Assembly: GCA_050732935.1 (NCBI GenBank)
Contig: JBOHRW010000217.1
Location: forward strand, 398 to 64,397
DNA from: Gemmatimonadota bacterium
GTDB lineage: Bacteria > Gemmatimonadota > Gemmatimonadetes > JACCXV01 > JAHWKZ01
Direction of reading: 5' to 3'
Length of the DNA stretch: 64,000 bases
The notes under the pieces were generated by a model. The model was given only the letters and a program-made list of their open reading frames with translations, had not been told where the DNA came from and ran no database searches. The position numbers and the translations under genes are program-made. Below are positions 12,004 through 50,728 of the stretch, in pieces (position 1 is the stretch's first letter; every line of letters begins with the position of its first letter).

Positions 12004-12462
12004 CTACCGTGCCTGGATCGTGATCGTGCTCACGACCTGGTTGTCCGACGGGTCCGGGTCGTTCTGATCGAGCGCGGTGACCTGGATCGTCATCTGGAGG
12101 GTCGCCGTCACCGTCACCGTGGCCGCGGCGGTCATCGCTTCCATTTCGGCGGTGATGGTGGCGGTTCCGTCACCGATCGCCGTCACCGTGCCGTCGCCAT
12201 CGACCGTGGCCACATCGGGATCGCTCGATCGCCAGGAGAGACCGTTTCCGGGCGCCAGAGGCGCGCCATCGCCATCGGTGACGGCGAGCTGCCGCTGACC
12301 GCCGATCGCCCCGAGGACGAAATCGGCCGGTGACAGGGAGATGGCGTCCGGGAGCTCTCCCCCTCGAGTCGCGTCGAAGGGTCCGACGCCGGAGCATGAT
12401 CCCAACAACACGCAGGCCGCGGTCGCCACGATCCCCCAGGCAGCCATTCCTCGATCGGACAT
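12004..12462 (-). CDS. Big_2 (bacterial Ig-like group 2) domain lipoprotein, cassette B
   Basis: MSDRGMAAWGIVATAACVLLGSCSG lipobox. LSWRSSDPDVATVDGDGTVTAIGDGTATITAE matches the Big_2 core. Sits 29 nt downstream of adhesin-like gene B on the same strand. Confidence 0.65.
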   Translation of the reverse strand: MSDRGMAAWGIVATAACVLLGSCSGVGPFDATRGGELPDAISLSPADFVLGAIGGQRQLAVTDGDGAPLAPGNGLSWRSSDPDVATVDGDGTVTAIGDGTATITAEMEAMTAAATVTVTATLQMTIQVTALDQNDPDPSDNQVVSTITIQAR

Positions 12463-12490
12463 CGCTATCTCTCCTCTCCGCCTGCGGCCC

Positions 12491-13849
12491 TCAATTCGAT
12501 TCCTCGTCCATGACCGTCAGGATCAGCGTGAGCGTCTCCCGCTCATCCGGGGCCAGGCTGCCCACGGACCACACACCGGTCGCCTGGTCGTAGGCCCCCT
12601 TGCTGGCGGTCGCCGAAGTCAACGCGAGCCGGGGCGGGATCCCCTGAACGAGCTGGACGCCGGTGGCGGTCACCGGTCCACCGTTCCGCACCGTCACGAC
12701 ATAGGCGACGTCGTCCCCGACGGTCGGGGAGTCGTCGCTCACCGAGACCTCGACCCCGAGGTCTGCGCTTTCGGCGGCGAAGGTGACGGTCGCCGTGTCG
12801 TCGATCGTCGCGCCGTTGACGGTCCCGGTGACCGTCGCCGTTCCGGGAGTCGTGATGGAAGTCAGGGTGGCCGTGTAGATGCCATTTCCACGGTCGCTGA
12901 CAGGACCGAGCGTCCCCAAGGTCGTCGACAGGGTGACCGCGTCGCCGCCCGATGCGAGCGGCTCCCCGTTAGGGTCGATCAGCAGGACCGTGATCGTCGA
13001 CGTGCTGGAGCCATTGGCGGGGATCGATGCCGGGTCGGCGGTGATCATGCTGTTCGCTGGCGAAGGGGCGCCCGCGGTGAACTCGACCGTCGCGGTATCG
13101 TCGATGCTCTCTCCATCGACCGTGCCGGTGACGGTGGCTGTGCCGCCCCTAGTCGGCGAGGTGAGGGTGGCGAGGTACGTGCCATCGCCTGCGTCCGAGA
13201 CGGAACCCAGGGTCCCTGAGTCGGTGGACAGGGTGACTGCATTCCCACCCGACGGGAGCGGGTTTCCGGATTCGTCGCGAAGCCGGACGGTGATCGTCGA
13301 CGTGCTCGATCCATCGGCCGGGATCGAGGTGGGGTCGGCGGTGATCTCAGAGGTCGCGCCCGAAGGCGGCCCCGGCTCGTCATCCTCATCGTCATCGTCG
13401 TCATCCTCATCGTCGTCATCCTCATCATCCTCATCGTCGTCATCCACGACGTCGAATGGGGCGCTGGTCGTGCTCGTGAGCCCGTCCGCCGTCGCCTCCA
13501 GAGTGTATCCCGCTCCAGGCTTGCTGACCGAGAGGTTGTCGAACGTGGCCAGGCCGCTCTCGGCGTCGTCATGCTTCCGTCCACCCAGCGTGGCTCCGCC
13601 GGGGTTGGAATGGAGCCCCACATCGATGCGTGCCGTGAATGATGCCACGCGGTTTCCGGATGCATCCACGGCTTCGACCGTGACCGCAGGATCGATGTGC
13701 TCGCCCGCGTCCACATCGGTGGGCTCCTCCACGAAGCGCAGGGCGGTCGCAGTCTGAGCGCGCAGGCCGGAAGCCGGAAGGAGCGCGGCGACGAGGCACC
13801 CGAGGACGAGCGCCGATCGCCCCGGGGGATGGGTCGCCGGGGAAATCAT
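12491..13849 (-). CDS. secreted adhesin-like protein: invasin/Big_1-like Ig repeats, poly-Asp/Glu linker, C-terminal DUF11 domain (cassette B)
   Basis: Signal MISPATHPPGRSALVLGCLVAALLPASGLRA. Two repeats of the form ITADP.SIPA(D/N)GSSTSTITV.L.D..GNPL..GG.AVTLST..GTLG.VSD.G.G.Y.ATLTS. Then DDDDEDDEDDDDEDDDDDDEDDE. C-terminal ...VTVRNGGPVTATGVQLVQGIPPRL...TGVWSVGSLAPDERETLTL (DUF11-like). Confidence 0.7.
   Translation of the reverse strand: MISPATHPPGRSALVLGCLVAALLPASGLRAQTATALRFVEEPTDVDAGEHIDPAVTVEAVDASGNRVASFTARIDVGLHSNPGGATLGGRKHDDAESGLATFDNLSVSKPGAGYTLEATADGLTSTTSAPFDVVDDDDEDDEDDDDEDDDDDDEDDEPGPPSGATSEITADPTSIPADGSSTSTITVRLRDESGNPLPSGGNAVTLSTDSGTLGSVSDAGDGTYLATLTSPTRGGTATVTGTVDGESIDDTATVEFTAGAPSPANSMITADPASIPANGSSTSTITVLLIDPNGEPLASGGDAVTLSTTLGTLGPVSDRGNGIYTATLTSITTPGTATVTGTVNGATIDDTATVTFAAESADLGVEVSVSDDSPTVGDDVAYVVTVRNGGPVTATGVQLVQGIPPRLALTSATASKGAYDQATGVWSVGSLAPDERETLTLILTVMDEESN
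13378..13447 (-). repeat. GAY/GAR trinucleotide simple-sequence tract encoding a 23-residue poly-acidic linker
   Basis: Plus strand reads tcatcctcatcgtcatcgtcgtcatcctcatcgtcgtcatcctcatcatcctcatcgtcgtcatc. It encodes DDDDEDDEDDDDEDDDDDDEDDE within the 12491..13849 gene. Confidence 0.7.
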
Positions 13850-13931
13850 GAGCCTGCGAAATATGGGACATCGCCCGGGACACGACACCCCCCGACTACT
13901 TCGTACGGGGTAGGCTCCGGTCGGGTGCCGT

Positions 13932-14420
13932 CTACGGAGCCACGACGGTGATCGTCGTCACGACTTGGTTGTCGGAGTCATCCGAGTCGGATTGATCCGT
14001 GGCCGTCACCTCGACCGTGGTCTCGATTGTCGCAGCGACGGTGACGAGGGCGGCGGCCTCCTGTCCAGCAAGGGTGGCGGTGATGGTGGCCTGCCCGTCG
14101 CCGGACGCGCTGACGATCCCCGATCCGTCCACGGATGCCACTGCCTGGTCGCTGCTGGCCCACGACACCCCGTTCCCCGGAGGAATGGGGATCCCCTCCC
14201 CATCGACGACGCCGAGCTGACGCCGCGCGCCGATGGCGCCGAGGGTGACCTGGTCGGGGTCGATGGAGATCTCTCCTGGCGAGATCCCTCCGTACGGGCC
14301 AACGCCCGAGCACGTGGCCCCGGTCAGCAAGACCGCCAGAACGACGAATCCCCTGCGCAATGTCGATCCCTCCTTCGGGACCGGCGCTCGCCGATCGAGC
14401 CGGGGGTCGGCCACTTCCAT
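13932..14420 (-). CDS. Big_2 domain lipoprotein, cassette A (paralog of 12004..12462)
   Basis: ...GFVVLAVLLTGATCSG lipobox. VSWASSDQAVASVDGSGIVSASGDGQATITAT is a Big_2 core. Alternative TTG start at 14360. Begins 4 nt after the stop of adhesin-like gene A. Confidence 0.6.
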   Translation of the reverse strand: MEVADPRLDRRAPVPKEGSTLRRGFVVLAVLLTGATCSGVGPYGGISPGEISIDPDQVTLGAIGARRQLGVVDGEGIPIPPGNGVSWASSDQAVASVDGSGIVSASGDGQATITATLAGQEAAALVTVAATIETTVEVTATDQSDSDDSDNQVVTTITVVAP

Positions 14421-14423
14421 CCG

Positions 14424-16619
14424 CTAATCCGAATCCGGGCCCAGGACGCGGGTCACGATGGTGAGCGTGGCCCGCTCGCCTTCGGCCAGCGCCCCCACGC
14501 TCCAGATCCCCGTTGTCGACACGTATTCTCCCTGACTGGTCGTGGCGGATACGAACTCCAGCCGCGCGGGCAAGGTCTGGGTGATTTCGACCCCCGTGGC
14601 ATGGTCGGGACCCTGGTTGCCGGCCGTCACGACGTAGACCACCTGGTCCCCGATCCCCGGCGTCTCGTCGCTCACCTCGACCACGACCTCCAGGTCCGCG
14701 CTCCCGGCCGCGAACGTCACGGTGGCGGTGTCGGAGATCGAGGCTCCATTGACGGTGCCGCTGATGGTGGCGGTTCCCGGCGCGATGGTGGAAAGAAGGG
14801 TCGCCGTGTACGTCCCGTCCCCGTTGTCCCGCACGGCACCCAGGGACCCGAGCGTGGTCGAGAGGTTCACGTTGTCGCCGCCTGTCGAGAGGAGCACTCC
14901 TTCCGCGTCGCGGAGCTGGACGACGATGCTGGACGTGCTGGCTCCATCCGCGAGGATCGAGACGGGATTGGCGCTGATCGTGCTCGTGGCCGGCGAGGCC
15001 GCGCCGGCGGTGACGGCGAACGTCGCGCTGGTCGCACCCGCCGCCCCCGAGACCGAGAACCCGAGCCGGTAGCCGCCCGCCGATCGGTCGATCCGCAGGT
15101 CGTCGAAAGTCGCGACACCGTTCAGGAGCGGCTCGTTGACATCTCCCTGGAGGTCGGCGCCGGCGGGATTGACCGCCAGTGTGGCCGCCACGTTGCCGGT
15201 GAAGCCGGTCAGGGTGTTGCCGAGGCCGTCCACGACGCGCACGACGACCGGAGGCGTGATGGGCTCGTCGACGGGCGTGTCGGTCGGCTGCTCGTCGACG
15301 ACCAGCGTGGGCTGGCCGACCAGCGCGAACGTGACGGACGCGGTATCCGTGATGTCCGCCCCGTTCACCGTGCCCGAGATGGTCGCCGTGCCGGCCGTGG
15401 TGGCGGAGGTCAGCGTGGCCGTGTACGTGCCGTCCCCGTTGTCGATGTCGGGGCCAAGGGTCCCCGACGTGGTAGAGAGCGAGACGTCGGCTCCGCCACC
15501 GGTCAGGGGGTTCCCGAACGCGTCCCGGAGCTGGACGGTGATCGTCGACGTGCTGCTCCCGTCGGCCGGGATCGTGGTCGGGTCGGCCGTGATCTCCGAC
15601 GTCGCTCCGGAGGGTGCGGCCGGGGTGATCTGGAAAGAGCTGCTCGTCGCTTCCGTGAGCGGCGCCGAAGCGGCCTGGAGCGTGTAGGTCCCAGCCTGCT
15701 GTATCGAGAGGTCGCCGAAGGTCGCCACGCCATCCACTGCGGCCTTGCTGGTCGTGCCCATGAGCGCTCCCCCGGCCGGGCCCGTGGCGATCGACAGCGT
15801 CACCAGGCCGGTGAAGTCCGGGTCCACGTTCCCACCGGCGTTCCTGGCCTCCACGGTCACCGCGGGGGTGATGGTCTGGCCGGCCGCCCTGCTGGTCGGT
15901 TGCTGAGCGAAAGCGAGCTGAGTGGCCGGGGCGACGGTGAACGTGACCGTGGCGTCGTCGTCGAGGACCAGGTTGTCGACCGCGGCGGTCACCGTCGCCG
16001 TCCCGGTAGCCGTCGAGGTGAGGGTGGCGGTGTACGTGCCGTCGCCCCCATCGTCCACCGTGCCCAGCGAGCCGAACGTGGTGGAAAGCACGACGTCGGC
16101 CCCGCCGGTCGTCAGGGGGTTTCCGAACTCATCCCGGAGGAGGACGGTAATCAGGGCGCTGCTCACCCCGTCGGCCGGGATCGAAGTCGGGTCGACCGTG
16201 ATCTCCGACTCCTCGGGGTCCGGGGGGCCGGGAGTGATCTGGAAGGAGGCGCTGGTAGCAGCCGTGAAGTTGTCAGCCGTAGCCAGGAGGGTGTAGGTGC
16301 CGGCCTCGTCGATGTTCAGGTCGCTGAAGGTGGCCGTCTCCAGGACTGTCTGTTGGGCCACGGTTCCGTCGAGCCCCCCGGGGCCCGAGGCGATGCTGAG
16401 CGTTACGGTCACGGGGAGAATGGCGCCCGGTGCGTGGACCACGACGTCCGGCATGATCTGCCCGGCTTCCGTATCGGTCGGCTGTTCATCGAATTCGAGC
16501 GCGATCTGCGCCCTCAGGTCCTTGACGAGCGGGGAGGCGAGCGACGTGATCAGGCAGGCCAGAAGGCCGATCGCGGCGAGGGTCCCCCGCCCCGGGGGTT
16601 GGGTCACCGGGGGAAACAT
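14424..16619 (-). CDS. secreted adhesin-like protein: six alternating Ig-like modules (invasin-like + Big_1-like) and C-terminal DUF11 domain (cassette A)
   Basis: Real start MFPPVTQPPGRGTLAAIGLLACLITSLASP at 16619; the listed 1360-aa ORF continues upstream only as antisense of the OMP gene. Modules of the type QPT...AG..I.P.V.V.A.D..GN...F.G.V.L...GP.G..L.G......GVATF.DL.I..AG.Y.L alternate with ITADP.SIPADGSSTS.ITV.LRD..GNPL.GGG..V.LSTT.G.LG. Ends ...VVYVVTAGNQGPDHATGVEITQTLPARLEF...TGIWSVGALAEGERATLTI. Confidence 0.7.
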   Translation of the reverse strand: MFPPVTQPPGRGTLAAIGLLACLITSLASPLVKDLRAQIALEFDEQPTDTEAGQIMPDVVVHAPGAILPVTVTLSIASGPGGLDGTVAQQTVLETATFSDLNIDEAGTYTLLATADNFTAATSASFQITPGPPDPEESEITVDPTSIPADGVSSALITVLLRDEFGNPLTTGGADVVLSTTFGSLGTVDDGGDGTYTATLTSTATGTATVTAAVDNLVLDDDATVTFTVAPATQLAFAQQPTSRAAGQTITPAVTVEARNAGGNVDPDFTGLVTLSIATGPAGGALMGTTSKAAVDGVATFGDLSIQQAGTYTLQAASAPLTEATSSSFQITPAAPSGATSEITADPTTIPADGSSTSTITVQLRDAFGNPLTGGGADVSLSTTSGTLGPDIDNGDGTYTATLTSATTAGTATISGTVNGADITDTASVTFALVGQPTLVVDEQPTDTPVDEPITPPVVVRVVDGLGNTLTGFTGNVAATLAVNPAGADLQGDVNEPLLNGVATFDDLRIDRSAGGYRLGFSVSGAAGATSATFAVTAGAASPATSTISANPVSILADGASTSSIVVQLRDAEGVLLSTGGDNVNLSTTLGSLGAVRDNGDGTYTATLLSTIAPGTATISGTVNGASISDTATVTFAAGSADLEVVVEVSDETPGIGDQVVYVVTAGNQGPDHATGVEITQTLPARLEFVSATTSQGEYVSTTGIWSVGALAEGERATLTIVTRVLGPDSD

Positions 16620-16709
16620 GACACAGGGAATATCGCGAGCCCGGGCCTCCCGCGCACGGGCCGCTGATTGACCGGCCTCGCCCGCGGGCGTACACTGCGG
16701 AACAGCCCC

Positions 16710-18128
16710 ATGACCCCTCGCACGGCCCTCGCTCTGGTGGCGCTCCTTTGCGTCCTGTCGGCGGCTCCGGACCAGGCGGTCGCCCAGACCGGCTGGGAGG
16801 CCAACGTCCACGCAGCGACCCTCGTCAACGATCTCTTCGAAGAGAGCGGGGACGGCGTCCAGGTGGGCGGCCGACTGGTCTACACGACCCCGTGGCGGGT
16901 CACGGTGGGCGGCAACTTCGATTGGGCACGGCTGACCGATGTCGGACTGGGTCTGGTGGACGGCGCGACGGCCGACCTCCTTCTCTACAGCGGCCAAGTC
17001 GGATACGCGGTGCCCGTCGCCTCGCGGGCGGATCTCATGCTGGCGGCGGGGATCGGCGGGGTCACCATCCGTCTGCGGGATGTGCCCTCCTCGACCGGGG
17101 TGCTGACCAGCAGTTCGGGCCAGCTCGTCCCGGTAGGGGTCGGGATCAGGCTCCGGAACCGGGCCGTCGACGCCTCGTGGGCGTTCCGCGCCGACGTTCG
17201 CGACGACATCATCTTCCTGGACGTCCAGGACCCGGCGAGCGGCGATGTCGACCAGGAGCCGCGGCACAACTGGGAGATCTCGGCGGGCGTCTCGTTCCTG
17301 TTCGGCGGCGGGGAGCCGACGCCGACCCCGACCGACACTCGACCCGTGGAGCGACGGCCCGTCGAGCCGCGCCCGGAGCCCGAGGCCGACCGTCCGGCCC
17401 AGCCGAGGCCGGTCGTCCAGGGCGACGCCGACCGAGACGGGGTCCCTGACCGCCTCGACCGCTGCGTCAGAACGCCGTCGGATCTGGCCGTCGGAGCGAC
17501 CGGATGCCCGATCGACATGGATCGTGACGGCGCGCCGGACCGCCGCGTGGCGCAGGTGCCGCCCGATCGGCCTCCCGCCGACGAAGGGCCCGAGCCCCCG
17601 GAGCCTTCGGACGAGGTCGAGCCGCCCCGGGTGGGTCCGGGCGACACCGATCGGGATGGCGTCGCGGACGCCGCCGACAGGTGCGTGAACACACCGATCG
17701 GCTCCGCCGTCGACGAGCGGGGCTGCCCGCCTCCTCCACCGGCGGCGGAGCCCGGCCCGGAGGTCGAGGCGCCTGCGGTGGAAGATGAGGCGAGACCCGC
17801 CGACGAGCCGCCCGTCGATGAACGGCCCCTGGACGAGGCGCCCCCAGACGAGGCGCCGGATGAAGGCGTGGAGGCCGCTCCGCCAACCGCGTGCCTGGAT
17901 GGACGGCCGTGGGATCGCCCAGGGGTCACGATCGCATTCGATGGTCGCCTTTGGGAGCAGCTGGGTCCACCCGAGCCGATCACGCTGAGCAACCTGAACC
18001 GGGTCGGCGAGTTCGACGGGGTCCCGATCTACGTGGGGTCGGTTGCCGAGGAGCCGTACACGGACCTGTGGGTGCCGCGCTGCAGCGGGGCCTATCAGCT
18101 CTACGTGGAGGAGGGGAGCGCGGAGTGA
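16710..18128 (+). CDS. outer-membrane beta-barrel protein with TSP3-like repeats and the same uncharacterised C-terminal Cys domain (paralog 4)
   Basis: Start MTPRTALALVALLCVLSAAPDQAVAQ. Barrel ends AGVSFLFGGG. Pro-rich linker. DADRDGVPDRLDRCVRTP...GCP and DTDRDGVADAADRCVNTPIGSAVDERGCP. C-terminus ACLDGRPWDRPGVTIAFDGRLWEQLG...GEFDGVPIYVGSVAEEPYTDLWVPRCSGAYQLYVEEG aligns with the C-terminus of 5463..6599. Confidence 0.75.
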   Translation: MTPRTALALVALLCVLSAAPDQAVAQTGWEANVHAATLVNDLFEESGDGVQVGGRLVYTTPWRVTVGGNFDWARLTDVGLGLVDGATADLLLYSGQVGYAVPVASRADLMLAAGIGGVTIRLRDVPSSTGVLTSSSGQLVPVGVGIRLRNRAVDASWAFRADVRDDIIFLDVQDPASGDVDQEPRHNWEISAGVSFLFGGGEPTPTPTDTRPVERRPVEPRPEPEADRPAQPRPVVQGDADRDGVPDRLDRCVRTPSDLAVGATGCPIDMDRDGAPDRRVAQVPPDRPPADEGPEPPEPSDEVEPPRVGPGDTDRDGVADAADRCVNTPIGSAVDERGCPPPPPAAEPGPEVEAPAVEDEARPADEPPVDERPLDEAPPDEAPDEGVEAAPPTACLDGRPWDRPGVTIAFDGRLWEQLGPPEPITLSNLNRVGEFDGVPIYVGSVAEEPYTDLWVPRCSGAYQLYVEEGSAE

Positions 18129-18570
18129 GGCGGATCGGGGCCGGGGTGGCGTCCAGGATCGCGGTCGCGGTGGTTCTCGGATGCGGAAGCGGGACGGTGG
18201 CGCCTGACGACATCCCCGTTTCCGAGAGGGATCTACGGATCGCGGTCGCGAGCGGGGACCATCAACTGGGAGAGGTCGGAACAACGCTGCCCGCCTTCCT
18301 GGTCGCGCGGGTGACCGACGGGGCACTCTTCCCGTAGAGGACGTCCGGGTGCGGTGGGAGGCCGTCGAAGGAGATGGGGAGCTCAGCCTGAAGGGGAGCC
18401 TCACGGACCGCACGGGCCTGGCCGCCGCGGTCCTCTTCCTGGGGGACGAGCCCGGCGAGCTCGTCGTCCGCGTGTTCCTCGAGAACAAAGAGGAGGCGCG
18501 GTTCACGGCCCGAGCCGTCGAGGTCGGCGCGCCAAGGCCTTCGGTTTCTCCTGCCTCCCGGGGACGTTAA
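18125..18570 (+). pseudogene. small lipoprotein gene split by a frameshift at about 18335 (pseudogene or assembly indel)
   Basis: GTG 18125 (GTGA overlap with the OMP stop) gives VRRIGAGVASRIAVAVVLGCGSG...LPAFLVARVTDGALFP, then stop. The +2 frame continues as ...RWEAVEGDGELSLKGSLTDRTGLAAAVLFLGDEPGELVVRVFLENKEEARFTARAVEV, which looks Ig-like and protein-like. Confidence 0.3.
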
Positions 18571-20887: not shown

Positions 20888-22619
20888 TCAGGGCGAGACG
20901 ACGCGGCCGGGCAACGCTCCGGTCGGCTCGCCATCCCTGACCACGACCCGGCCGTTCACCACGACGTGCGGGATGCCGATCGGATAGCGGTGCGGGTCCT
21001 CGAATGTCGCCGTGTCGGCCACACGGGCAGAATCGAACACGACGAGATCGGCGGCCCGACCGACGGCGATCGTTCCGCGATCGCTGAGGCCGACGATGGA
21101 AGCTGGGAGCGAGGTCATCTTCCGGACCGCCTCCTCGAGCGGGAGCGCACGCTCCTCGCGGACGTACTTAGCCAGCACGCGCGGATAGGTTCCGTACGCC
21201 CGCGGATGGGGGGTGCCCTCCGAGAGCGGTCCGGTCGAGCGCCGGGCGCCGGCGTCCGAGCAGATGGCACCCAGGGGGTGCACGACGAACCGGCGGGTGT
21301 TCTCCTCCGACATCCCGTGCCCGACGATCGAAACGCGGTTCCTGGAGTCTGCGAGGAGCTCCACGGTGACGTCGTAGGGATCCGCGTCCCGCCCGGCGGC
21401 GTACTCGCCGAGACGTCGGCCGACCGCGCCCTCGTCCGCTTCACCGGTCACACTCGCGATCTGGATCGCGTCCCAGTCGCCCATCATGGCGATCTTCTCC
21501 GCGACCGCCGCCCGGATCGTCGTTTCCTGCCCCGGATCTTCCAGCCGCGCCAGAAACGCCTCTGTCCCGCCCTCCCGGACCGCGGCTGGGAAGAGGGAGG
21601 CGAGGCCCGTGGAGTACGCCGTGTAGGGATAGCGGTCGAAGTGTACCCGACGGTCCGCGGCCGCGGCCTCCAGGGTCTCGATCAGCGACGTCGCCTTGGG
21701 CCAGTTGCGCCGGCCCTGGGCCTTCAGGTGGCTCGCCTGGAACGGCACCCCGGCCGTGCCGGCGATGGCCAGCCCCGCGGCGAGCGCCTCCTCGACACGG
21801 TCGGCCTCGTTCCGCAGGTGGCTGGCGTAGGGAAGCCCCGTCCCGACGAGAGGCCGCGCGAGCGCGACCAGCTCGTCCAGGTCGGCGAAGGCGTTGGGCG
21901 TGTACTCGAGCCCGCTCGAGACCCCCGCTGCTCCGGACACCCGTCCCCGCTCGATCTCGGCGACCATGCGCTCCAGCTCCGCAGGCGACGGCGGGCGGTC
22001 GTCATTGCCGATCACAGTCTCGCGGACGGTACCCGAGCCGATCATGGTGGCGAAGTTGGCGAGGTGACCGCGCTCGGAGAGGAGGCGGAACAGCTCGTCC
22101 CACGACGTGAAATCGATCTCCACGTCGTATCGCTCGAGGGTGTTCCGACGGCGCTCGTCCCGCATCGCGTCGCTCACCGGGGACGGAGGAGCCGTCCTGG
22201 CCAACGATCTCGGTCGTGACGCCCTGGCGGATCTTGGAATCGGCGAGATGATCGACGAAGATCCCGAGGTCGGTGTGGCCGTGAATGTCGACGAATCCCG
22301 GGGCGACCACGAGCCCGGTGACGTCGAGGACAAGCGCCGCTCCGGCCGCGGACAAGGTACCGAGCGCTTCGATCCGGCCGTCCCTCACGGCGACGTCGGC
22401 CGCGAAGGCCGGTCGGCCGGTCCCGTCCACGACCCGGCCGCCGCGCAGCACGAGGTCGAGGGGAGGACGGGCCTCGATCCGTCCGGTCGACCAGCCGCCA
22501 AAGGCGACCTGACCGGCGGCGACCGCGCCAAGCTGGAGGAAGCGGCGCCGATCGATCCCGCGCGCGGTCCCCGCGCTGTCGTGTCCCCCGGTCTCGCTCA
22601 TCGCGCGGCAATCTAGCAT
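20888..22619 (-). pseudogene. N-acyl-D-amino-acid deacylase (D-aminoacylase, amidohydrolase family) with TAT signal; frameshift at about 22185 (pseudogene or assembly indel)
   Basis: N-terminus (frame of 22002..22619) carries RRRFLQLGAVAAG twin-Arg signal, LVLRGGRVVDGTGRP...VAPGFVDIHGHTD and GVTTEIVGQDGSS. The remainder (frame of 20888..22333) continues ...PVSDAMRDERRRN... to the C-terminal VVFDSARVADTATFEDP. The join is in a C/G homopolymer at 22181-22190. Confidence 0.65.
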
Positions 22620-22673
22620 GGTCCGTGGCGAATCCGCGTGCGTGCTCCCGACATGAGATTATATTGCCGCGCG

Positions 22674-23111
22674 ATGAGAACGTTCGTCAGGGCTTCGATG
22701 CTCCTCGCTGGTCTTGCCGCCTGCTCGGGCGGCGAGTCCACGGGCGAGCCCGTCGGCGAGCTGGCGGTGTACGAGGAGGAGCGGGGCGTCCTCTTCGTGG
22801 AGCCGGAGAGCGTGCGCGACTACACGGAGGCGGCGAACGACGTCGTCTTCGTCGACAACCGGAACGCGTTCAGCTTCCAGCAGAGCCGTATCGCGGGCGC
22901 CCGCCTCATCCCGACCGGCGAGATGGCCCGCTCGGTCGGAAGCCTTCCCCTCAACAAGTGGATCGTCTTCTACTGCACCTGACCCGACGACGGCTTGAGC
23001 GTCCGGGCGGCGCAACTCGCGGAAGAGAACGGATACGAGAAGGTGGCGGTGCTGGAGGGCGGCTTGGGGGCGTGGACACGGGCGGGGTACCCGGTCGAGT
23101 CCGGCTCGTAG
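22674..23111 (+). CDS. rhodanese-like sulfurtransferase lipoprotein with in-frame TGA (22980-22982) at the catalytic Cys position; selenocysteine candidate or pseudogene
   Basis: MRTFVRASMLLAGLAACSGG lipobox. Rhodanese fold ...VVFVDNRNAFSFQQSRIAGARLIP...NKWIVFYCT-TGA-PDDGLSVRAAQLAEENGYEKVAVLEGGLGAWTRAGYPVE. Ungapped alignment to GlpE ([33 protein letters not shown]) puts the TGA exactly on the active-site Cys. Confidence 0.55.
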
Positions 23112-23129
23112 CCGGGCGCGGGCGCCAGC

Positions 23130-23541
23130 CTACGCCTTGGTCAGGACCATCGAGCCGACTCGCGCAACGGCCTCGAAATGATCGTCGTAGCTGAGAACGA
23201 TGGCTCCCGCCTGGGCGGCCGTGGCGGCGATCCAGATGTCGTTGGTCGGGATCGGGGTCCCGATCCGACGCAGGTCGACCACGATCTCGGCATAATGCCG
23301 GCTGACCTCGTGATCCACGCCCAGCTCCTCGACCGACGGGTTGGCGAGGAAAGCACGCAGCGTCTCTTCGTTCTCCTCGCGACGGCTGCCGAGCAGGAAT
23401 CCGACCCGGAGCTCGCCCAGCGCGATCGCCGGCATGCCGATCCACTCGGCCCGGTCGATGAGTTCCACCACGCGGGCCTCGCCGCGCTGGAAACGACTGT
23501 AAGCCGAGGTGTCGAGGCAATAGCGGCTCACCCCCAGAGTT
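23130..23541 (-). CDS. vapC: VapC-like PIN-domain toxin
   Basis: GTG start gives VSRYCLDTSAYSRF... (PIN N-terminal D). ...DIWIAATA...SYDDHF. The start overlaps the antitoxin 3' end by 14 nt. Confidence 0.7.
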
Positions 23542-23773
23542 CCTCGTCGACCTGTTCGAACGGCGCGGTCGCCTCCTCGAACTGCCGGAATTCCTCCTCG
23601 GTCCACTGCCCGGCCAGGCGCGCAAGGCCGTTGCTCCGTCTCGCACCGATACCGAGTCGCTGACTCAAGAGATCGATCACGATCGCGTTGATGGATTTCC
23701 CGCGGCGAGCTTTCTCGCGTTTCAGTGCGTCGTGCAGGTCCTCAGGCACGTTCCTGATCGTCAAGGTCTTCAT
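23528..23773 (-). CDS. vapB: ribbon-helix-helix (VapB/FitA-like) antitoxin
   Basis: MKTLTIRNVPEDLHDALKREKARRGKSINAIVIDLL is a typical RHH antitoxin N-terminus. Lies immediately upstream of, and overlapping, the PIN gene. Confidence 0.7.
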   Translation of the reverse strand: MKTLTIRNVPEDLHDALKREKARRGKSINAIVIDLLSQRLGIGARRSNGLARLAGQWTEEEFRQFEEATAPFEQVDEELWG

Positions 23774-23917
23774 CGGCTCGTCTGCCCTTGTCGTCATTGA
23801 GTGTAGTCTATGACTTCAGAAGAGTGCAGTCAACCGGCCGGCGGGCGTAAACGTCCTAAGGGTTAGCCCCTGGAGTCGGCGGGACGCGCCAAGGCGTCAA
23901 GACCTCAGCGCCGGGGG

Positions 23918-25702
23918 TTGGATTTCGAGCCCTCCAAAGGCACATTCCAGCCCCCGATGGCCGACCCGACCTCCGCCGAGCTCCCCTCCTTTTGCAAGTC
24001 GCTGTTCGGCGGCGTCATCGCCGACGAGCTGGTCTTCCCCTACCCACGGCTCCCGAGGCACGAGGCGGAGACGCTCGAGACCTACCTCGAGGACCTGCGC
24101 CGATTCTTCGACGCCAAGGTGGACGCCGCGGCATTCGACCGCGCCGCCGGGGTGCCGGAGGGGGTGATCGAAGGGCTCGCGGAGCGCGGCGTCTTCGGCC
24201 TCTACGTGGCGACGGCCTATGACGGTCTCGGCTTCAGCCAGACGCAGACGGCGCGCGTCATGGAGTTCGTGGCCTCGCGGGACGCCGGGATCGGCGTCCT
24301 GCTGGGCTCGCACCTCTCGATCGGGATCAAGGGGATCCACTTCTATGGGAACGAGGGGCAAAAGCGGCGCTGGCTCCCGCCCTGCGCCAAGGGCGAGACG
24401 CTGGCTTCCTTCGCCCTCACCGAGCCCGACCACGGCTCGGACGCCGCTCATATAGAGTCCCGCGCCGAGCGGGCCACCGACGGCGAGGGCTGGATTTTGA
24501 ACGGCCGCAAGATCTGGATCGGCAACGCCCAGCGCGCGGGCGTGATCTCGACCTTCGCGCAGACCCCCGTCGAAAAGGATGGCCGCACGGTCGACCGCGT
24601 AACCGCGTTCGTCGTCGAAGGCGATCAGGAGGGTCTCGCCAGGGGCCGCACCTGGACCGACGAGAAGCTCGGCATCCGCTCCTCGACCCAGGCCGAGCTG
24701 ATCTATCGCGATCTTCGGCTGGCGGACGACCAGGTTCTCGACCGTCCCGGGCATGGGTTCAAGGTCGCGATGAACGTGCTGAACGGAGGCCGGGTCGGTC
24801 TCGCTGCGAGCGCGGTGGGGGGCGCGCGCACCATCCTGGACGCGGCGATCGACTTCGCCACGACCCGCCGCCAGTTCGGCCGGCCGATCGCGGAGTTCGA
24901 CCTGATCGGCGGGAAGCTCGCCCGGATGCGTCTCGAGACCTTCGTGGCCGAGTCGATGGTGTACCTGACGCTTGGGCTCGTAGACCGCGGCGACGTCGAT
25001 TACAGCCTCGAGTCGGCGATCTGCAAGATCTACGCGTCGGAGATGATCTGGCGGGCGGCCGACGACGCCGTCCAGATCGCCGGGGGGCGGGGCTACATGA
25101 ACGACCGCCCGTTCGAGCGGTTCCTCCGGGACACCCGCATCATGCGGATCTTCGAGGGGACGAACGAGGTCCTGCGGGTCTTCGTCGCGCTGGCGGGAAT
25201 CGAGCGCCTCGGCGAGTACCTGGAGGGTGTGGGGAGGGCGCTCCGGGAGCCGATCAAGGAGCTGGGTGTCTTGACCGAGTTCGCCTTCCACCGGATCCAG
25301 GACGCCGTCGGCAGCCGCCGCTCGAAGGCCGTGGTGGCGGATCCCCTGGCCGGCTGCCTTAGGCAGGTCGAGCGCTTCACCGGCATCCTGCACGAGGGGG
25401 CAGAGTCGCTGATCCGGACCCATCGCGACCGCCTGGTCGAGGAGCAGTTTCAGCTCGAGCGGCTGGCCGACATCGCGATCGACGTCTACGCGCTGGTGGC
25501 ATCGATCGCCCGCGTCCAGGATCGGATCGAACGAGAGGGGGAAGCGGCCGCTCGCCCCGGGATCGACCTCGTCCGGCACTTCTGCCGGGAGGCCGGCGCG
25601 CGGATCGAGCGGAATCAGGCGCTCCTGTCGATAAACCGGGACGAGCGTGTCCGCCGGATCGCGGGCGAGGCGATCGCCGAGCGGAAAGGGGCACGGGGAT
25701 GA
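23918..25702 (+). CDS. acyl-CoA dehydrogenase, long (VLCAD/ACAD9-like, 594 aa)
   Basis: ACAD core (FALTEPDHGSDAA, LNGRKIWIGNA, IFEGTNEVLRVFVA) plus about 180-aa C-terminal helical extension, as in very-long-chain ACADs. Confidence 0.85.
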   Translation: MDFEPSKGTFQPPMADPTSAELPSFCKSLFGGVIADELVFPYPRLPRHEAETLETYLEDLRRFFDAKVDAAAFDRAAGVPEGVIEGLAERGVFGLYVATAYDGLGFSQTQTARVMEFVASRDAGIGVLLGSHLSIGIKGIHFYGNEGQKRRWLPPCAKGETLASFALTEPDHGSDAAHIESRAERATDGEGWILNGRKIWIGNAQRAGVISTFAQTPVEKDGRTVDRVTAFVVEGDQEGLARGRTWTDEKLGIRSSTQAELIYRDLRLADDQVLDRPGHGFKVAMNVLNGGRVGLAASAVGGARTILDAAIDFATTRRQFGRPIAEFDLIGGKLARMRLETFVAESMVYLTLGLVDRGDVDYSLESAICKIYASEMIWRAADDAVQIAGGRGYMNDRPFERFLRDTRIMRIFEGTNEVLRVFVALAGIERLGEYLEGVGRALREPIKELGVLTEFAFHRIQDAVGSRRSKAVVADPLAGCLRQVERFTGILHEGAESLIRTHRDRLVEEQFQLERLADIAIDVYALVASIARVQDRIEREGEAAARPGIDLVRHFCREAGARIERNQALLSINRDERVRRIAGEAIAERKGARG

Positions 25703-26428: not shown

Positions 26429-28257
26429 ATGACCCGCCGCATGGTCTTCGTCCTCACGCTGGTTCTTACGGTCGCCTGCGCGAGCGGTCCCCGCACCGAC
26501 GAGGTCGTCACCACCCGACAGGACGAGGAAGCGCCCCGGGCGCAGCCGGTCGCCACCGTCGTCGCCTCGACCGAAGGCGCGACCGATCTGCCGCCAGCCG
26601 CGCTCGCGCCCGATATCTCCCCCGAAGGGCTCGAGGCTCGCGTGGCGAAGTTCGCCCCGGTCGAGCTGGACTTCGACGACGCCCTCCTCGATCTCGATCA
26701 ACGGTTCGTGGTGAGGAAGCTGGTCGAGGCTTCCGACATCCTGGGAGAGATCTTCCGCGAGCAGGTCTGGCGCTCCAACCCGGAGTACGCGGCCGAGCTG
26801 GCGGCGGCGACCGGCCCCGGCCTGGACGCCGCCCGCGAGTACTACGCCATCATGGCCGGCCCGTGGGATCGTCTCGAGCACAACCAGCCCTTCCTCGACG
26901 TCGGCCCCAAGCCCCCCGGTGCGGGCTATTACCCTCCTGACCTCACGAAGGGGGAGATCGAGGCGTGGCTCGAGGAGCACCCGGCACAGCGGGACGCCTT
27001 CACCTCCTACTACACGGTGATCCGACGTGGTGTCGCCGGCCGCGCGGCTGACCCCGCGGAACGCACGGCCTTCGAAGGTCCCGTGCTGCTCGCCGTGCCC
27101 TACAGCACCGCCTACGCCGACGAGCTGGAGCGCGCCGCCGCTCTCCTCGACGAGGCGGCCGGCCGGGCCGGGAACGCATCGCTCGAGGACTTCCTGAGCA
27201 AGCGCGCACAAGCCTTTCGCACCAACGATTACTATGCCTCCGAGGTCGCGTGGATGAAGCTCGAGGGGAACCTGATCGAGCCCACGATCGGGCCCTACGA
27301 GGTCTACGAGGACGAGCTCATGGATGGAAGGCGGCGTTCGAGTCGTTCGTCACCCTCAAGGATCCCGAGGCGAGCACGGACCTGGAGACGCTGGTGAGCC
27401 ACCTCCCGGATCTCGAGGCCGCGCTTCCCATCGACGATCGATACAAGAGCCTCGACCGGTCGTTCGCGTCGCCGATCTCGGTGGTCGACGAGATCTACAC
27501 GTCCGGGGACACGCGAGCCGGGGTCCAGACGCTGGCCTACAACCTGCCCAACGACCCGCGCGTATCGAAGGAATACGGCACGAAGAAGGTGATGCTGAGA
27601 AACGTCATCGAGGCCAAGTTCGAGAAGATCCTGGCGCCGATCGCGGAGCGGCTGCTCGAGCGGTCCTTGTCCGACGGGATGGAGGCGCGACCGTTCTTCA
27701 TCTCGATCGTGATGCACGAGTTGGCTCACGGGCTCGGTCCGCGGGTCGTCCACGGAACCGAGACGCCGGTCTCGGTCGCGCTGGGGACCAGCTATTCGGC
27801 GATCGAGGAGGCGAAGGCCGACGTCGTCGGCTACCTCTCGCTCGAGAGGCTCGTGGACGAGGGGGTCTATCCGGAGGACTTCCGCCGCCAGGTCACGATC
27901 TCGACGGTCGCCGGGCTCTTCCGCTGCGTCCGCTTCGGGACCGGCGAGGCGCATGGCAAGGGCTGCGCGCTGCAGCTCGATCAGCTCGTCGAAGCGGGGG
28001 CCATCACCGTGGGGGAGGACGGGCGGTTCGGGATCGACTTCGAGAAGGTCCGGTCGGCCTACGAGGACCTCGCGCGAACGCTTCTGACCCTGGAGGCCAC
28101 CGGTGACGCTTCGGGCGCCGAGCGGCTGCTGGCCGAGCGCGGCACCGTACCCCAGGAGATGGAGGCCGCCCTGGGCGCGCTGTCAGACGTGCCGGTCGAC
28201 ATCCGGCCGCGCTACACGGTCGTGGACAAGATGCGGACATGGGAGGATACCCAGTGA
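26429..28257 (+). pseudogene. peptidase M49 (dipeptidyl-peptidase III)-like lipoprotein; frameshift at about 27322 (pseudogene or assembly indel)
   Basis: GGAGG RBS. MTRRMVFVLTLVLTVACASG lipobox. HELAHGLGP (HEXXH) and EEAKADVVG (the EEXRAE-like second M49 motif). The two ORFs 26396..27397 and 27250..28257 join at ...YEDELMDG|WKAAFESF. Confidence 0.6.
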
Positions 28258-35978: not shown

Positions 35979-36356
35979 ATGAGACGCTGGGTCGGTCGCT
36001 GGATCATCGGGGTCGGCATCATCCATGCTGGGGTCGGAGTCGTCATATTTCGAGAACGCCTGTTGGCGATCCTCCACGACGGTGTATGGAACGCCGTGGA
36101 CGGCCATCCTGGTCGACCGCTCGCGTTTTGGTTCGTATTCCTAGGTTTATTTACGATCGTGTTCGGGAGCCTCGTCGATTCGATGGAAAGCCGCGATCTT
36201 TCGCTTCCCCGCTTTGTGAGTTGGGCATTCTTCGTCTTGGTGGTTCTCGGAATCGTGACGATGCCCGTGGGCGGCGGATGGCTGCTCCTTCCGGCAGGGC
36301 TCGGTCTGGTCGTGCGTTCGTATCGACGAGGAACCAACGCCGCGCCCGCAGTCTAA
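35979..36356 (+). CDS. small hypothetical membrane protein (3-4 TM)
   Basis: GAGGAGG RBS. MRRWVGRWIIGVGIIHAGVGVVIF...LAFWFVFLGLFTIVFGSLV...WAFFVLVVLGIVTM. First gene of the low-GC island. Confidence 0.45.
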   Translation: MRRWVGRWIIGVGIIHAGVGVVIFRERLLAILHDGVWNAVDGHPGRPLAFWFVFLGLFTIVFGSLVDSMESRDLSLPRFVSWAFFVLVVLGIVTMPVGGGWLLLPAGLGLVVRSYRRGTNAAPAV

Positions 36357-36486
36357 CAACCGGTTGCAGCGGACGGTCCGCTCCGCGGCCCGCCGCTGAA
36401 CCGGAGCGTTAGGCCGATCAACTCCAAGGGTTGTCGGCTTCGCGCGATAGTTTCCTGCTTGGGCCTGAGATGCTAGGGGAGGGGAA

Positions 36487-37104
36487 GTGGCCGACAATCC
36501 GCCGTTCGTTACGGCCTACGGAAACATTACAAAGGCCCTGACCAAGATCCAGACAGCGGCTGTACCCCCTCGGTTTACGCAGGACTTCCTTGCCACAAAA
36601 CTGGACCTCAAAGGGGGATCGCCGAAACCGGTAATTCCTTTCCTTAAGCGGGTCGGGTTCTTGGGCACGGACGGGGTCCCTACCGAGTTGTACAAGCGGT
36701 TTCGGAACCCTAAGCAACGCGGACCGGCGGCGGCCGCCGCACTGAAGAAGGGGTACCGAACGCTTTACGAGATCAACGAGTACATCCACGAGGCGAAAGA
36801 TGATGAACTTAAGGGCGTCGTGGTTCAAATGACAGGTGGGGAGCCAGAGTCGAGCACCACAAAGGCAATCATCGGATCCTTCAAAGCGCTTCGGAAGTTC
36901 GCGGCCTTCGACGAGAACGAAGAGCCAGAAGAGCCGGAGGATGTTGAGGAGTCGGAAGAGGAATTGCCTGAAGGGCCCGATAACAAGATCACGACGACGA
37001 AACTTGGTTTGTCGTACGCGATCAATCTGAATCTTCCCGCAACCTCGGACGTAGCGGTGTTCGACGCAATCTTCAAGAGCCTGAAGGAGCACTTACTTAA
37101 GTGA
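36487..37104 (+). CDS. hypothetical protein, possibly DUF5343-like; upstream partner of a HEPN gene
   Basis: 205 aa. ...SPKPVIPFLKRVGFLGTDGVPTELYKRFRNPKQRGPAAAAALKKGYRTLYEIN resembles DUF5343 from memory (not verified). Acidic C-terminal tail. 4-nt GTGA overlap with the next gene. GC is about 52%, against about 69% for the flanks. Confidence 0.5.
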   Translation: MADNPPFVTAYGNITKALTKIQTAAVPPRFTQDFLATKLDLKGGSPKPVIPFLKRVGFLGTDGVPTELYKRFRNPKQRGPAAAAALKKGYRTLYEINEYIHEAKDDELKGVVVQMTGGEPESSTTKAIIGSFKALRKFAAFDENEEPEEPEDVEESEEELPEGPDNKITTTKLGLSYAINLNLPATSDVAVFDAIFKSLKEHLLK

Positions 37105-37700
37105 CCGATGACCACATGGCATTTCGTGACCGGCTCAAGCTCTTTGCAATGAACAATCAGTTACTTGAAAACGGCCTGGATGCGGTGGAGCAAGAGCATG
37201 CCATCGATCTCGGTCGAGGGCATCAGTGGACTGTGGGCCAGGACAAGGACTACTACCCACAACTTGACCAAGCGGTCCGCACGGAGGCGCGTGCAATGGC
37301 GCCGCACTACGAGATTTTCTACTCGCTCGAGAATTCGATTCGAAGTCTCATCTCGGAAACACTCGAAGTAGCCGAACCTGCGGGATGGTGGGAGAGCGGC
37401 CGCGTCCCGCCAACGATCAAAGCAGCCGCTGAGGAGACGCGAAGGCGAGAGATTGAATCTGGGATGACGCCACGGTCTGCAGAGCCCCTCGACTTCACGA
37501 CTTTCGGGCAGCTCGGGGAAATCATCAAAACCAACTGGGATGTCTTTGGGGGCATGTTCAACAGCCAGAGAGCCGTTGAGCGCGTAATGGCCAACTTGAA
37601 TACGCTTCGTGGTCCGATAGCTCACTGCAGCCCACTTGCTGAGGACGAAATCGTGAGGCTTCGTCTCAGTGTTCGAGACTGGTTCCGCTTAATGAGCTAA
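37101..37700 (+). CDS. HEPN-domain protein (Swt1-like HEPN, R-x4-H motif)
   Basis: C-terminal ...ANLNTLRGPIAHCSPLAEDEIVRLRLSVRDWFRL carries the R-x4-H HEPN signature followed by a conserved helix. 199 aa. Confidence 0.55.
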   Translation: MTDDHMAFRDRLKLFAMNNQLLENGLDAVEQEHAIDLGRGHQWTVGQDKDYYPQLDQAVRTEARAMAPHYEIFYSLENSIRSLISETLEVAEPAGWWESGRVPPTIKAAAEETRRREIESGMTPRSAEPLDFTTFGQLGEIIKTNWDVFGGMFNSQRAVERVMANLNTLRGPIAHCSPLAEDEIVRLRLSVRDWFRLMS

Positions 37701-37817
37701 TGGCCGGACGCTTACGGCCTAACTCGCTTCAGGAGCCGACCGAGGGCTCGCTGTCGCTCGGCACTCGGCGGGTCAGCAGCAAGATTCGTTGCGCCTTGCG
37801 ATCAGGAGGCACGTCGC

Positions 37818-39071: not shown

Positions 39072-39145
39072 TCTGAACCGAGCGAGGCCCTGATCCTAGT
39101 TAGAACGCCTCGTTTGCCGCAGGGGCGGGGCGACCGCAGAATGGG

Positions 39146-39772
39146 ATGAGGCAAGGCATGCAAAGGATCGAAATTGAGATTCCCGTTATTCGGCCTGGCG
39201 GAACGATGTTTCGGGTCGACAGCGACTGGCAGCACAACGCTGTAATCCAGACCTATCATCCCTCGTGGTACGTCTACGCCCACGCTTATCGCATGGGTGC
39301 CGATCGCCTAGTTGCCTCGGCCATGCAGGACCGCCGTGACATAGACTATCTCGTCTTCCCCATTGCTTTTATGTACCGGCAGTATCTCGAGCTTGGTCTA
39401 AAGGCGCTGATCCTTGATGCGGAGGAGTTGGCCAACACCTCATCGGCGGATCCCTACGGACACCGCCTGGACGTGCTATGGAACCGCTGCGAGCGGGCAT
39501 TGCTAAATCTGGAGAATCCACCATCTCTCGTGGAACGAGACGTGATCGGGAAATCTATCGATCAGTTCGGCACCATAGACGCGTCTTCGGTGGCGTTTCG
39601 GTATCCAGTTACGAAGGACGGTCATCCAGTACAACTCCCGACGACGCATATCAATCTCCGCGTACTCCGGGACGAGATGAAGAACGTCGGGAATGTCATC
39701 GAGTCCCTTTTGAACGGCCTGAGCGCCATGGTTGACCTAAAGCGTGAGTTCGAGGGTGAATGCGGGATGTAA
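39146..39772 (+). CDS. hypothetical protein (alpha-helical, about 190-208 aa)
   Basis: Clean ORF in the island, with an alternative start at MFRVDSD (39206). No recognisable family. Confidence 0.4.
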   Translation: MRQGMQRIEIEIPVIRPGGTMFRVDSDWQHNAVIQTYHPSWYVYAHAYRMGADRLVASAMQDRRDIDYLVFPIAFMYRQYLELGLKALILDAEELANTSSADPYGHRLDVLWNRCERALLNLENPPSLVERDVIGKSIDQFGTIDASSVAFRYPVTKDGHPVQLPTTHINLRVLRDEMKNVGNVIESLLNGLSAMVDLKREFEGECGM

Positions 39773-40151
39773 CCTCGCCGTTCAGACCGCGGCGGCCGCA
39801 TGCGGAGCCCGGTGTTCTAATGTGAGGAGGACGGACTCGAGTGCCCGTCCCTGTCGCGCGGGCAGAAAACTTGCTGCAACGGCCTCGAAGCAAGAAGGCT
39901 TCGAGCTCAGTGTTGAGGCGACACAAGGCGAACGAGACTCGAATCTCGTTGAAGGTCAGACTTTCCGCGGTCTCGACAATGTCACAGCAAGGGTGTCATA
40001 GAGGTCACGACCCGCCGTCTAACGAGTGAATGGACCTGACGGTGCGGCTGGCTCCTCAACCGGGAATGTTTGACATGGGGGAGGGCGTCGGTGATTTGAG
40101 AGGAACTCAGGTGGCCGCGCGGCAGGCGATTCGTGAATCCGTTAGGCGATC

Positions 40152-40850: not shown

Positions 40851-40944
40851 CACGACCTACAGCGGATCGGCTACATTGGCCGTTAATCGCCGAACTGTTG
40901 GACACTACGCCAAATCCGAAATCCCCGCCGGGGACCAGGACCTC

Positions 40945-43050: not shown

Positions 43051-43177
43051 CTCGTACCGAAACCTCTGCACCACCAGCGCCGGTGTCTGCGTGTGTTCCC
43101 CCTCCACGGGTCCGTGCCAGTGGACACAAAATGTAGGGGATTGCGCCTAACCCCCGACGCTTTGTATCATCCACCCC

Positions 43178-50719: not shown

Positions 50720-50728
50720 ACGGAGAGA

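Follow-up and report, generated by a model that had tools for sequence, protein, structure and literature searches.

A complete gene for a putative selenocysteine-containing rhodanese is present on a 64,000-nucleotide stretch from a Gemmatimonadota bacterium (assembly GCA_050732935.1, contig JBOHRW010000217.1, positions 398 to 64,397 of the forward strand; the whole stretch analyzed is referred to as the window). The gene occupies positions 22674..23111 of the plus strand and comprises 145 codons, including an in-frame UGA at codon 103 (22980..22982), followed by the stop codon TAG (23109-23111). As judged by comparative sequence analysis, this UGA is very probably decoded as selenocysteine (Sec), making the gene a genuine selenoprotein gene. 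We also consider it highly likely that the gene is intact and codes for an exported, single-domain rhodanese lipoprotein of 145 residues with Sec at codon 103. The proposal of the initial annotation that Sec replaces a redox-active Cys in a rhodanese lipoprotein is strongly supported by the TGA in 25 of 25 distinct orthologs, a homolog with TGC, selection on the 42 downstream codons, a frozen codon block, and the nearest curated family, NF041203.

Reading frame and architecture of the encoded protein

The frame starting with the ATG at 22674 crosses the TGA at 22980-22982 and closes at the TAG at 23109-23111. Translation of 22674-23111 gives MRTFVRASMLLAGLAACSGG...NKWIVFYCT-TGA-PDDGLSVRAAQLAEENGYEKVAVLEGGLGAWTRAGYPVESGS, and the product with its landmarks numbered reads MRTFVRASMLLAGLAAC17SGG...NKWIVFYC101-T-[TGA]-PDDGLSVRAAQ...GGLGAWTRAGYPVESGS. 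When Cys was put in place of the TGA, the product of 145 residues matched the Pfam profile PF00581 across the stop (residues 54-136, E = 2.2e-11, 44.5 bits versus a gathering threshold of 22.2 bits). This match bears out the earlier description of the frame as open and rhodanese-like on both sides of the TGA. The UGA-interrupted rhodanese domain (22833..23081, plus strand, as all elements of the gene described here) was delimited by the PF00581 match together with an AlphaFold model of a Cys-containing homolog. Two codons stand out in it: the TGC of Cys101 (22974..22976), the first residue of the pair in the invariant Y-C-T-U-P motif and kept in all orthologs and in a wider CxCP family, and the UGA of residue 103.

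The N terminus has the features of a lipoprotein signal peptide (22674..22724) that ends in the lipobox L-A-A-C17 (22713-22724); the sequence MRTFVRASMLLAGLAAC17 conforms to the pattern [LVI][ASTVI][GAS]C, and Cys17 is nearly invariant among the orthologs. From this pattern, the rhodanese protein is predicted to be exported, lipid-anchored at Cys17, and exposed to the periplasm. Upstream of the gene, a -10-like TATATT box with a putative promoter role (22660..22665) is located 8 nt 5' of the start codon. The same hexamer was found 8-9 nt 5' of the rhodanese ATG in at least 12 orthologous loci (same position in L001-L029), and this constant distance fixes the start codon. The gene start lacks a Shine-Dalgarno sequence, and a full sigma-70 consensus was sought upstream of the rhodanese gene and not found. 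This arrangement suggests that the gene has its own promoter and is transcribed, in this clade, into a leaderless or near-leaderless mRNA.

Conservation of the UGA codon

A search of approximately 5.8 billion proteins returned 56 homologs, all of them from Gemmatimonadota metagenome-assembled genomes (MAGs) or from unassigned metagenomes. Nearly all were only about 100 residues long and covered just the first 70% of the query, and 19 of the 19 truncated homologs retrieved terminated at '...YCT', as is explained by gene callers stopping when every ortholog has a stop at that codon. The public copies found were cut at the TGA in this way and labelled 'rhodanese-like domain-containing protein' or 'hypothetical'. 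For a comparison at the DNA level, ortholog sequences were retrieved by exact look-up as well as from collections of genomes and metagenomes, giving 25 distinct gene sequences. All 25 contained TGA at codon 103, and in each the frame remained open for about 42 more codons. The stop position was common to 23 of them; the gene is one codon shorter in L027 and slightly longer in L029. Protein identity among the orthologs averaged 77% in the aligned part, with a minimum of 62%, and the signal-peptide regions were far more divergent. Downstream of the TGA, invariant residues (e.g. G+26, G+27, L+28, A+30, and G+35) were specified by freely varying codons, demonstrating that this region is translated and under selection at the protein level.

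One full-length homolog, P0009 (locus L024, 54% identity), carries TGC at this site and reads MYCTCPDDGLAVQAAQ. In the wider YC[TAS]CP family, too, a Cys is aligned to the UGA position. The conserved TGA and the Cys homolog together read as the classical Sec/Cys signature. The initial annotation had left to an ortholog comparison the question of which codon is found here, and the answer is TGA in 25 of 25 distinct orthologs, with TGC in the 54%-identical homolog.

All public annotations treat the TGA as a true stop, so that a 102-residue N-terminal product would be formed and the 42 codons beyond it would be a separate small gene or untranslated. Such a product would lack the last helix-strand-helix of the rhodanese fold. 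Furthermore, frame, length, and stop position are preserved downstream of the TGA, amino acids are conserved there over varying codons, and no conserved TTG or ATG start is available for a second gene. Termination at the TGA is accordingly very improbable.

The initial annotation had kept as a fallback that the TGA is a sequencing or assembly substitution (TGC or TGT to TGA) or a recent nonsense mutation and the gene a pseudogene. It had also pointed to other defects of the contig, and these were confirmed: two neighboring genes in the window are frameshifted, one for an amidohydrolase (~22181) and one for an M49 peptidase (~27322). They are irrelevant to the TGA at 22980-22982, which recurs, with an intact frame downstream, in all 25 orthologs; these come from different samples and assemblies. 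In addition, an independent Logan assembly (L032, run SRR27067762) was 100% identical to window positions 21198-24482, TGA included. The TGA in the orthologs, the conservation of the frame, and the identical second assembly exclude an error, a nonsense mutation, and a two-gene reading; the probability left for a substitution or a pseudogene is close to nil, and the fallback is rejected.

In 12 of the 25 orthologs the real stop codon of the rhodanese gene is itself TGA, which also terminates other genes in the window; its use as an ordinary stop indicates that UGA has not been reassigned. A scan of the window and all loci for further in-frame TGAs with coding signal on both sides revealed only gene boundaries. 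Reading the TGA as Sec restores a conserved core gene of a clade of soil and sediment Gemmatimonadota that is at present annotated in truncated form.

A candidate SECIS element downstream of the UGA

Among the 30 codons that specify a conserved residue and are at least four-fold degenerate, five showed no synonymous change in the 25 sequences. These five codons, AGC GTC CGG GCG GCG (codons +6 to +10 relative to the UGA, 22998..23012), are consecutive (P = 1.8e-4), and the mean codon entropy of the other 25 such codons was 1.25 bits. In agreement, third-position identity was 0.61 for codons -46 to -1 upstream of the TGA, 0.64 for codons +1 to +5, 1.00 for codons +6 to +10, and 0.55 for codons +11 to +42. 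A 17-mer, AGCGTCCGGGCGGCGCA, occurs as a single copy per locus and only in the rhodanese gene; the Cys homolog P0009/L024 has neither the frozen block nor the 17-mer. The frozen segment, 16-30 nt after the UGA, may represent the SelB-binding core of a selenocysteine insertion sequence (SECIS), with the hairpin H2 as the candidate structure.

H2 (22999..23013) has a 5-bp stem (GCGUC/GGCGC) and the loop CGGGC, and begins at a distance of 21 nt from the UGA. In the segment from nucleotide +11 on, which lacks the 10 nt next to the UGA, H2 is the fold of minimum energy, with -6.7 kcal/mol for the hairpin alone; its pairs are kept in 100% of the alignment cells, with a single U-G to U-A change. The model for bacterial SECIS elements calls for a stem of at least 4 bp, a loop of 3-9 nt with G within its first two nucleotides and G or U next to it, a UGA 16-37 nt away, and a limit of -7.5 kcal/mol (PMC13188914). 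H2 agrees with it in loop size, loop G, stem length, and spacing. The initial annotation had seen no convincing SECIS-like hairpin downstream, a statement that has to be revised in view of this conserved candidate, which came to light by ortholog comparison; H2 had been overlooked because the short hairpin competes with a longer, more obvious fold.

This longer fold, H1ext (22974..23014), has 14 bp, contains the UGA in its stem and a GNNURAG loop at nucleotides +11 to +17, and excludes H2. Assuming a selenoprotein, it might itself be the functional SECIS, with its loop 10 nt after the UGA, in a noncanonical short-spacing class in which H2 would be nonfunctional. RNAalifold returned H1ext as the consensus, and no other local fold is as stable (-17.1 kcal/mol, z = -1.5 for H1ext); 98.7% of its cells pair, and variable sites fall in the loop or a bulge or are C-to-U changes that retain G-U pairs, these wobble changes being its only pair-keeping variation. 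Moreover, some SECIS elements lie outside the consensus model (PMC13188914). The 10-nt spacing, though, is below the range of 16-37 nt. Four alignment cells break pairs of H1ext, namely C+3 to G in three sequences, which is neutral for H2, and G+28 to A in one, through which a U-G pair of H2 becomes U-A. H2 matches in position the stretch where bases are frozen most strictly (+16 to +31). The known footprint of the ribosome places the 5' arm of H1ext inside the ribosome when the UGA is in the A site, which would count against a role of the intact long hairpin. We therefore consider H1ext an unlikely SECIS, yet one to be reckoned with; these small differences favor H2, and neither fold is proven.

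The two hairpins could act in succession, a proposal suggested by the ribosome footprint and by the precedent of the Escherichia coli fdhF mRNA. In free mRNA, the 5' arm of H2 would probably be held in the longer hairpin H1ext that includes the UGA. A ribosome arriving at the UGA would melt the first ~10 nt, the 5' arm of H1ext, after which only H2 could form at the mRNA entrance. There, H2 might recruit SelB-GTP-Sec-tRNA(Sec) in a manner similar to the upper stem-loop of fdhF. The conserved 17-nt element thus offers a compact and testable candidate SECIS for a non-model phylum of high GC content.

Evidence against Sec decoding and the context of the phylum

A number of results weigh against Sec decoding or against the signal proposed for it. 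H2 alone, at -6.7 kcal/mol, falls short of the -7.5 kcal/mol limit of the model, and not a single compensatory double change was counted in the orthologs for either H1ext or H2. Folding energies of the 86 nt after the TGA and of both hairpins were no better than those of dinucleotide shuffles (z from +1.3 to -1.5), although folding energy is uninformative here because the context has 67% GC. Since a portion of the active-site helix is encoded by the frozen block, the constraint is in part one on the protein; protein constraint cannot, however, explain the freezing of silent sites. Rfam searches of the whole window at gathering thresholds, and of 22940-23080 at permissive E-values, returned chance matches only. 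ARAGORN, run for tRNA(Sec) on the window and related loci (281 kb), detected no tRNA of any kind. Finally, phmmer searches for SelA, SelB, and SelD with E. coli queries gave no match in the six-frame open reading frames (ORFs) of the window and the 281 kb of related loci. A Pfam scan of most window ORFs yielded no sel genes either; the window contains ordinary housekeeping genes and menaquinone genes of the futalosine pathway.

These results leave some room for readthrough of the UGA without Sec, by a near-cognate tRNA for Trp or Cys, a suppressor, or a reassigned codon, with the downstream RNA merely stimulating readthrough: the Sec machinery was not seen directly in the window and the related loci, and the RNA element has no covariation and matched no curated family. 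On the other hand, the UGA is aligned with a Cys of the homologs within a C-x-C redox motif, the closest curated match is a selenoprotein family that shares the CxU motif, and 12 of the 25 orthologs terminate the rhodanese gene itself at an ordinary TGA stop, which argues against reassignment. Genes for Sec synthesis are also common in the phylum: in a study of MAGs from hadal sediment, selA (K01042) and selD (K01008) were present in a fraction of 0.864 of the Gemmatimonadota MAGs (PMC8938466, supplement 13), which renders Sec decoding plausible for the phylum. Readthrough without Sec thus keeps a small residual probability, and insertion of Sec is the preferred interpretation, in which case the rhodanese gene indicates that its Gemmatimonadota clade decodes Sec. 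The literature searched contained no dedicated report on selenoproteins or Sec in Gemmatimonadota, and the phylum is not mentioned in the supplements of PMC5029168.

The active-site loop

The AlphaFold model of the Cys homolog P0009 shows a rhodanese fold (predicted local distance difference test score, 89.7), in which the central strand ends at the Tyr and is followed by the loop C-T-C-P-D-D and then a helix. Its top Foldseek matches were single-domain rhodaneses with a root-mean-square deviation of 1.4-2 Å. Two residues of the loop compete for the place of the canonical catalytic Cys. The spacing from the second Cys, i.e. the Sec position, to the GG..W motif is that of classical rhodaneses, and ungapped alignments (with 6MXV, and the GlpE alignment of the initial annotation) therefore put Sec on the catalytic Cys. 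Counted from the side of the hydrophobic strand and the Y-C motif, it is the first Cys that corresponds to the classical 'vvyC', with two extra residues in the loop.

Gapped HMMER alignments (2HHG, 5VE3, and 3TP9) place the canonical Cys at Cys101, two residues upstream of Sec. Natural variants point in the same direction: of the two positions, BH2092 ('ITYCWGPAC', 'YCWGP') retains Cys at the first and has Gly in place of Sec, and P0198 ('YCTWP') likewise has Cys at the first only. In addition, the first Cys directly follows the predicted end of the strand. On account of the gapped alignments, the two variants, and the strand end, Cys101 is likely the canonical catalytic residue; Sec103, two positions on, would be a second, redox-active one. 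The earlier placement of the TGA exactly on the catalytic Cys consequently holds for ungapped alignments and is disfavored by the gapped alignments, the strand end, BH2092, and P0198. Assignment of the pair as Cys101 and Sec103 agrees with the label 'CxU' used for such proteins in the selenoproteome catalogue.

Compared with the classical CX5R/S loop, the active-site loop Y-C101-T-U103-P-D-D-G has two extra residues, and its Cys/Sec pair could cycle via a selenenylsulfide. An acidic PDD loop is atypical for the stabilization of a persulfide. The acidic loop and the C-x-U pair point to redox chemistry via a selenenylsulfide rather than to simple persulfide carriage. The protein is most likely a thiol/selenol oxidoreductase of the cell envelope or an enzyme handling persulfide or polysulfide, and not a plain thiosulfate sulfurtransferase.

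Gene neighborhood and possible redox partner

The gene of the Cys homolog belongs to a cluster (L024, 3625-11059) of overlapping or closely spaced coding regions for an extracytoplasmic function sigma factor, an unknown protein of 261 amino acids (aa), AhpC/Redoxin, a DsbA-like protein, a DsbH-like thioredoxin of 754 aa, the rhodanese, an unknown protein of 129 aa, DsbD_TM/CcdA, and YkuD. A mer operon (MerT, MerB) lies near this cluster on the same contig. By analogy with the Cys homolog, the Sec-containing rhodanese might be re-reduced by a membrane electron shuttle of the CcdA/DsbD type. An envelope redox role is suggested by the cluster of the Cys homolog, the similarity to the selenoprotein TsoB, and the lipoprotein signal. 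It is a point against this partner that the genes of the Sec type are not located beside Dsb/CcdA genes, the assignment being by analogy only. Their conserved backbone consists of genes for aconitase, an optional amidohydrolase, the rhodanese, an acyl-CoA dehydrogenase, and GNAT, followed by UbiA/UbiX/UbiD/Mqn.

Taken to its full extent, the proposal would describe the first selenoprotein family of Gemmatimonadota: a lipid-anchored periplasmic rhodanese acting as a Cys101-x-Sec103 oxidoreductase, fed by a CcdA/DsbD-type shuttle and receiving Sec through a switch between a long, UGA-sequestering and a short, SelB-binding hairpin. As a whole, this scheme is tentative and has a rather low probability of being correct in every part.

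Other features of the window

Divergently oriented upstream of the rhodanese gene is a gene for a D-aminoacylase-like amidohydrolase with an N terminus of the twin-arginine translocation (Tat) type (20888-22619, minus strand). Compared with an intact 570-aa ortholog in L026, it is split into two frames by a single frameshift near 22180-22182. The same frameshift is present in the independent, 100% identical assembly L032, so the gene may be a real pseudogene rather than an assembly error. An M49-family peptidase gene (26435-28242, plus strand) is likewise in two frames, with a break near 27322 relative to an intact 588-aa ortholog in L028, and represents the second frameshift within 5 kb. Between the rhodanese and acyl-CoA dehydrogenase genes, a VapC-like PIN toxin and a FitA-like ribbon-helix-helix antitoxin are encoded (23130-23797, minus strand); the rhodanese and acyl-CoA dehydrogenase genes are adjacent in L026, L028, and L031, identifying the pair as a toxin-antitoxin insertion.

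The stretch from ~36000 to 51000 has a GC content of 0.58-0.65 versus ~0.68 elsewhere in the window. It harbors a type I restriction-modification system, comprising HsdM (40816-43050) and HsdR with a C-terminal Schlafen/AlbA_2 domain (47042-50719), and an AbiEi antitoxin gene (43151-43774), and looks like an acquired defense island. On the minus strand, 12004-18566 contains a very large gene for an invasin/Ig-like surface protein (Big_1, Invasin_D3, DUF11), followed by three more Ig-like ORFs. An in-frame TAG (14424-14426) separates pieces of 1380 and 163 aa in this region; a similar arrangement of 1357 and 146 aa in L030 indicates that these are probably two genes and not a recoded stop. Further genes encode a bacterial serpin (54907-56157, plus strand; Pfam Serpin, E = 1e-105) and MsrA and MsrB (SelR domain), which are adjacent, divergent, both intact, and free of in-frame TGA (57059-58430).

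Comparison with known systems

The best NCBIfam match of the protein was NF041203 ('rhodanese_LYCAU, rhodanese-related (seleno)protein'; E = 2.1e-18, profile positions 26-125 of 126), with a score of 66.2 bits, below the equivalog cut-off of 115. NF041203 is listed in the current selenoproteome catalogue as 'rhodanese-like form 3, CxU motif', and rhodanese selenoproteins have been known since the metagenome surveys of the mid-2000s, from deltaproteobacterial and marine sources (PMC1976440, PMC2398784). The initial annotation had likewise stated that rhodanese-like Sec proteins are reported from metagenomic surveys. Both NF041203 and the protein described here are small single-domain proteins with a Y-C-x-U motif in which Sec follows the conserved Cys by two residues (F-Y-C-T-U here). 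They differ in that the motif reads [FLM]YCTU-PDDG rather than LYCAU, and in that the present clade is confined to Gemmatimonadota, has a lipoprotein signal, and is represented at NCBI by members truncated at ~100 aa.

An exhaustive HMMER search with the Cys homolog showed that the motif Y-C-[TAS]-C-P-x-[DE] is shared by small rhodaneses of a broad group, most of them anchored by a signal or a membrane segment. In this YCxCP subgroup (P0058-P0067, P0068-P0215), which is widespread and apparently unnamed, the motif Y-C-x-C-P is invariant and the loop is two residues longer than the classical CX5R/S; fusion to DedA or an N-terminal membrane anchor is frequent among its members, and its variants include C-W-x-x-x-C as in BH2092. 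All 10 YCxCP members tested matched NF041203 below the cut-off (47-79 bits), a result that points to the Gemmatimonadota clade as a separate Sec-bearing branch of the YCxCP group. By profile score, this clade is placed as a sister clade to NF041203 and not as a member of the family as curated. Three further rhodaneses from the locus scans (in L006, L022, and L023) were set aside as ordinary or inactive. Recognition of the clade adds an exported lipoprotein to the known CxU type of rhodanese selenoprotein. A wider YCxCP group is defined at the same time; its active-site loop has two additional residues, and its Cys member provides a link to Dsb/CcdA redox genes of the envelope. As a new clade of an already known kind of selenoprotein, it is an incremental advance and introduces no new principle.

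TsoB (NF045694) was matched weakly but specifically, over the rhodanese domain only (E = 2e-8, 32.8 bits versus a cut-off of 805), so that the protein falls outside this family. TsoB likewise has a rhodanese domain with Sec in the active-site loop and is tied to a membrane electron transporter of the DsbD type; the gene of the Cys homolog of our protein is two genes away from DsbD_TM/CcdA, with the 129-aa gene in between. In contrast, TsoB is a fusion of 572 residues with two Sec in a UxxxxU motif, whereas the protein described here is a stand-alone lipoprotein of 145 residues with one Sec and no adjacent DsbD gene. The rhodanese selenoproteins of forms 1, 2, and 4 (UxxS/UxxG; PMC1976440, PMC2398784) share the rhodanese fold and the location of Sec in the catalytic loop. 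Their Sec replaces the single canonical Cys in a loop of normal length (U-x-x-G), whereas here a C-x-U pair ends in the Sec and the loop is extended by two residues.

Of the solved structures, BH2092 from Bacillus halodurans (PDB 3NHV/3O3W), which was among the top Foldseek matches, is the closest with the same elongated loop. The two proteins align without gaps through this loop ('ITYCWGPACNGATKAAA' versus 'VFYCTUPDDGLSVRAAQ') and share its length, the Y-C motif, and the Pro. In BH2092, a cytoplasmic non-selenoprotein of uncharacterized function, Gly takes the place of Sec and the second Cys is located at +5 instead. GlpE (1GMX) and PspE (2JTQ) from E. coli are similar in fold and size, PspE also being periplasmic, and the GGxxAW motif and the AAQ helix align without gaps. 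They possess one catalytic Cys in a six-residue basic or neutral loop, as opposed to the Cys/Sec pair in an acidic loop (PDD) found here.

With respect to the recoding signal, the SECIS of E. coli fdhF is the obvious reference. In both cases the element is part of the coding sequence directly 3' of the UGA; the UGA itself is embedded in a long hairpin, and a short hairpin whose loop is rich in G follows at a distance of 16-37 nt. The two share no sequence similarity, and H2, a candidate known from sequence alone, would be an alternative pairing of the 3' arm of the long hairpin and not, as in fdhF, its top.

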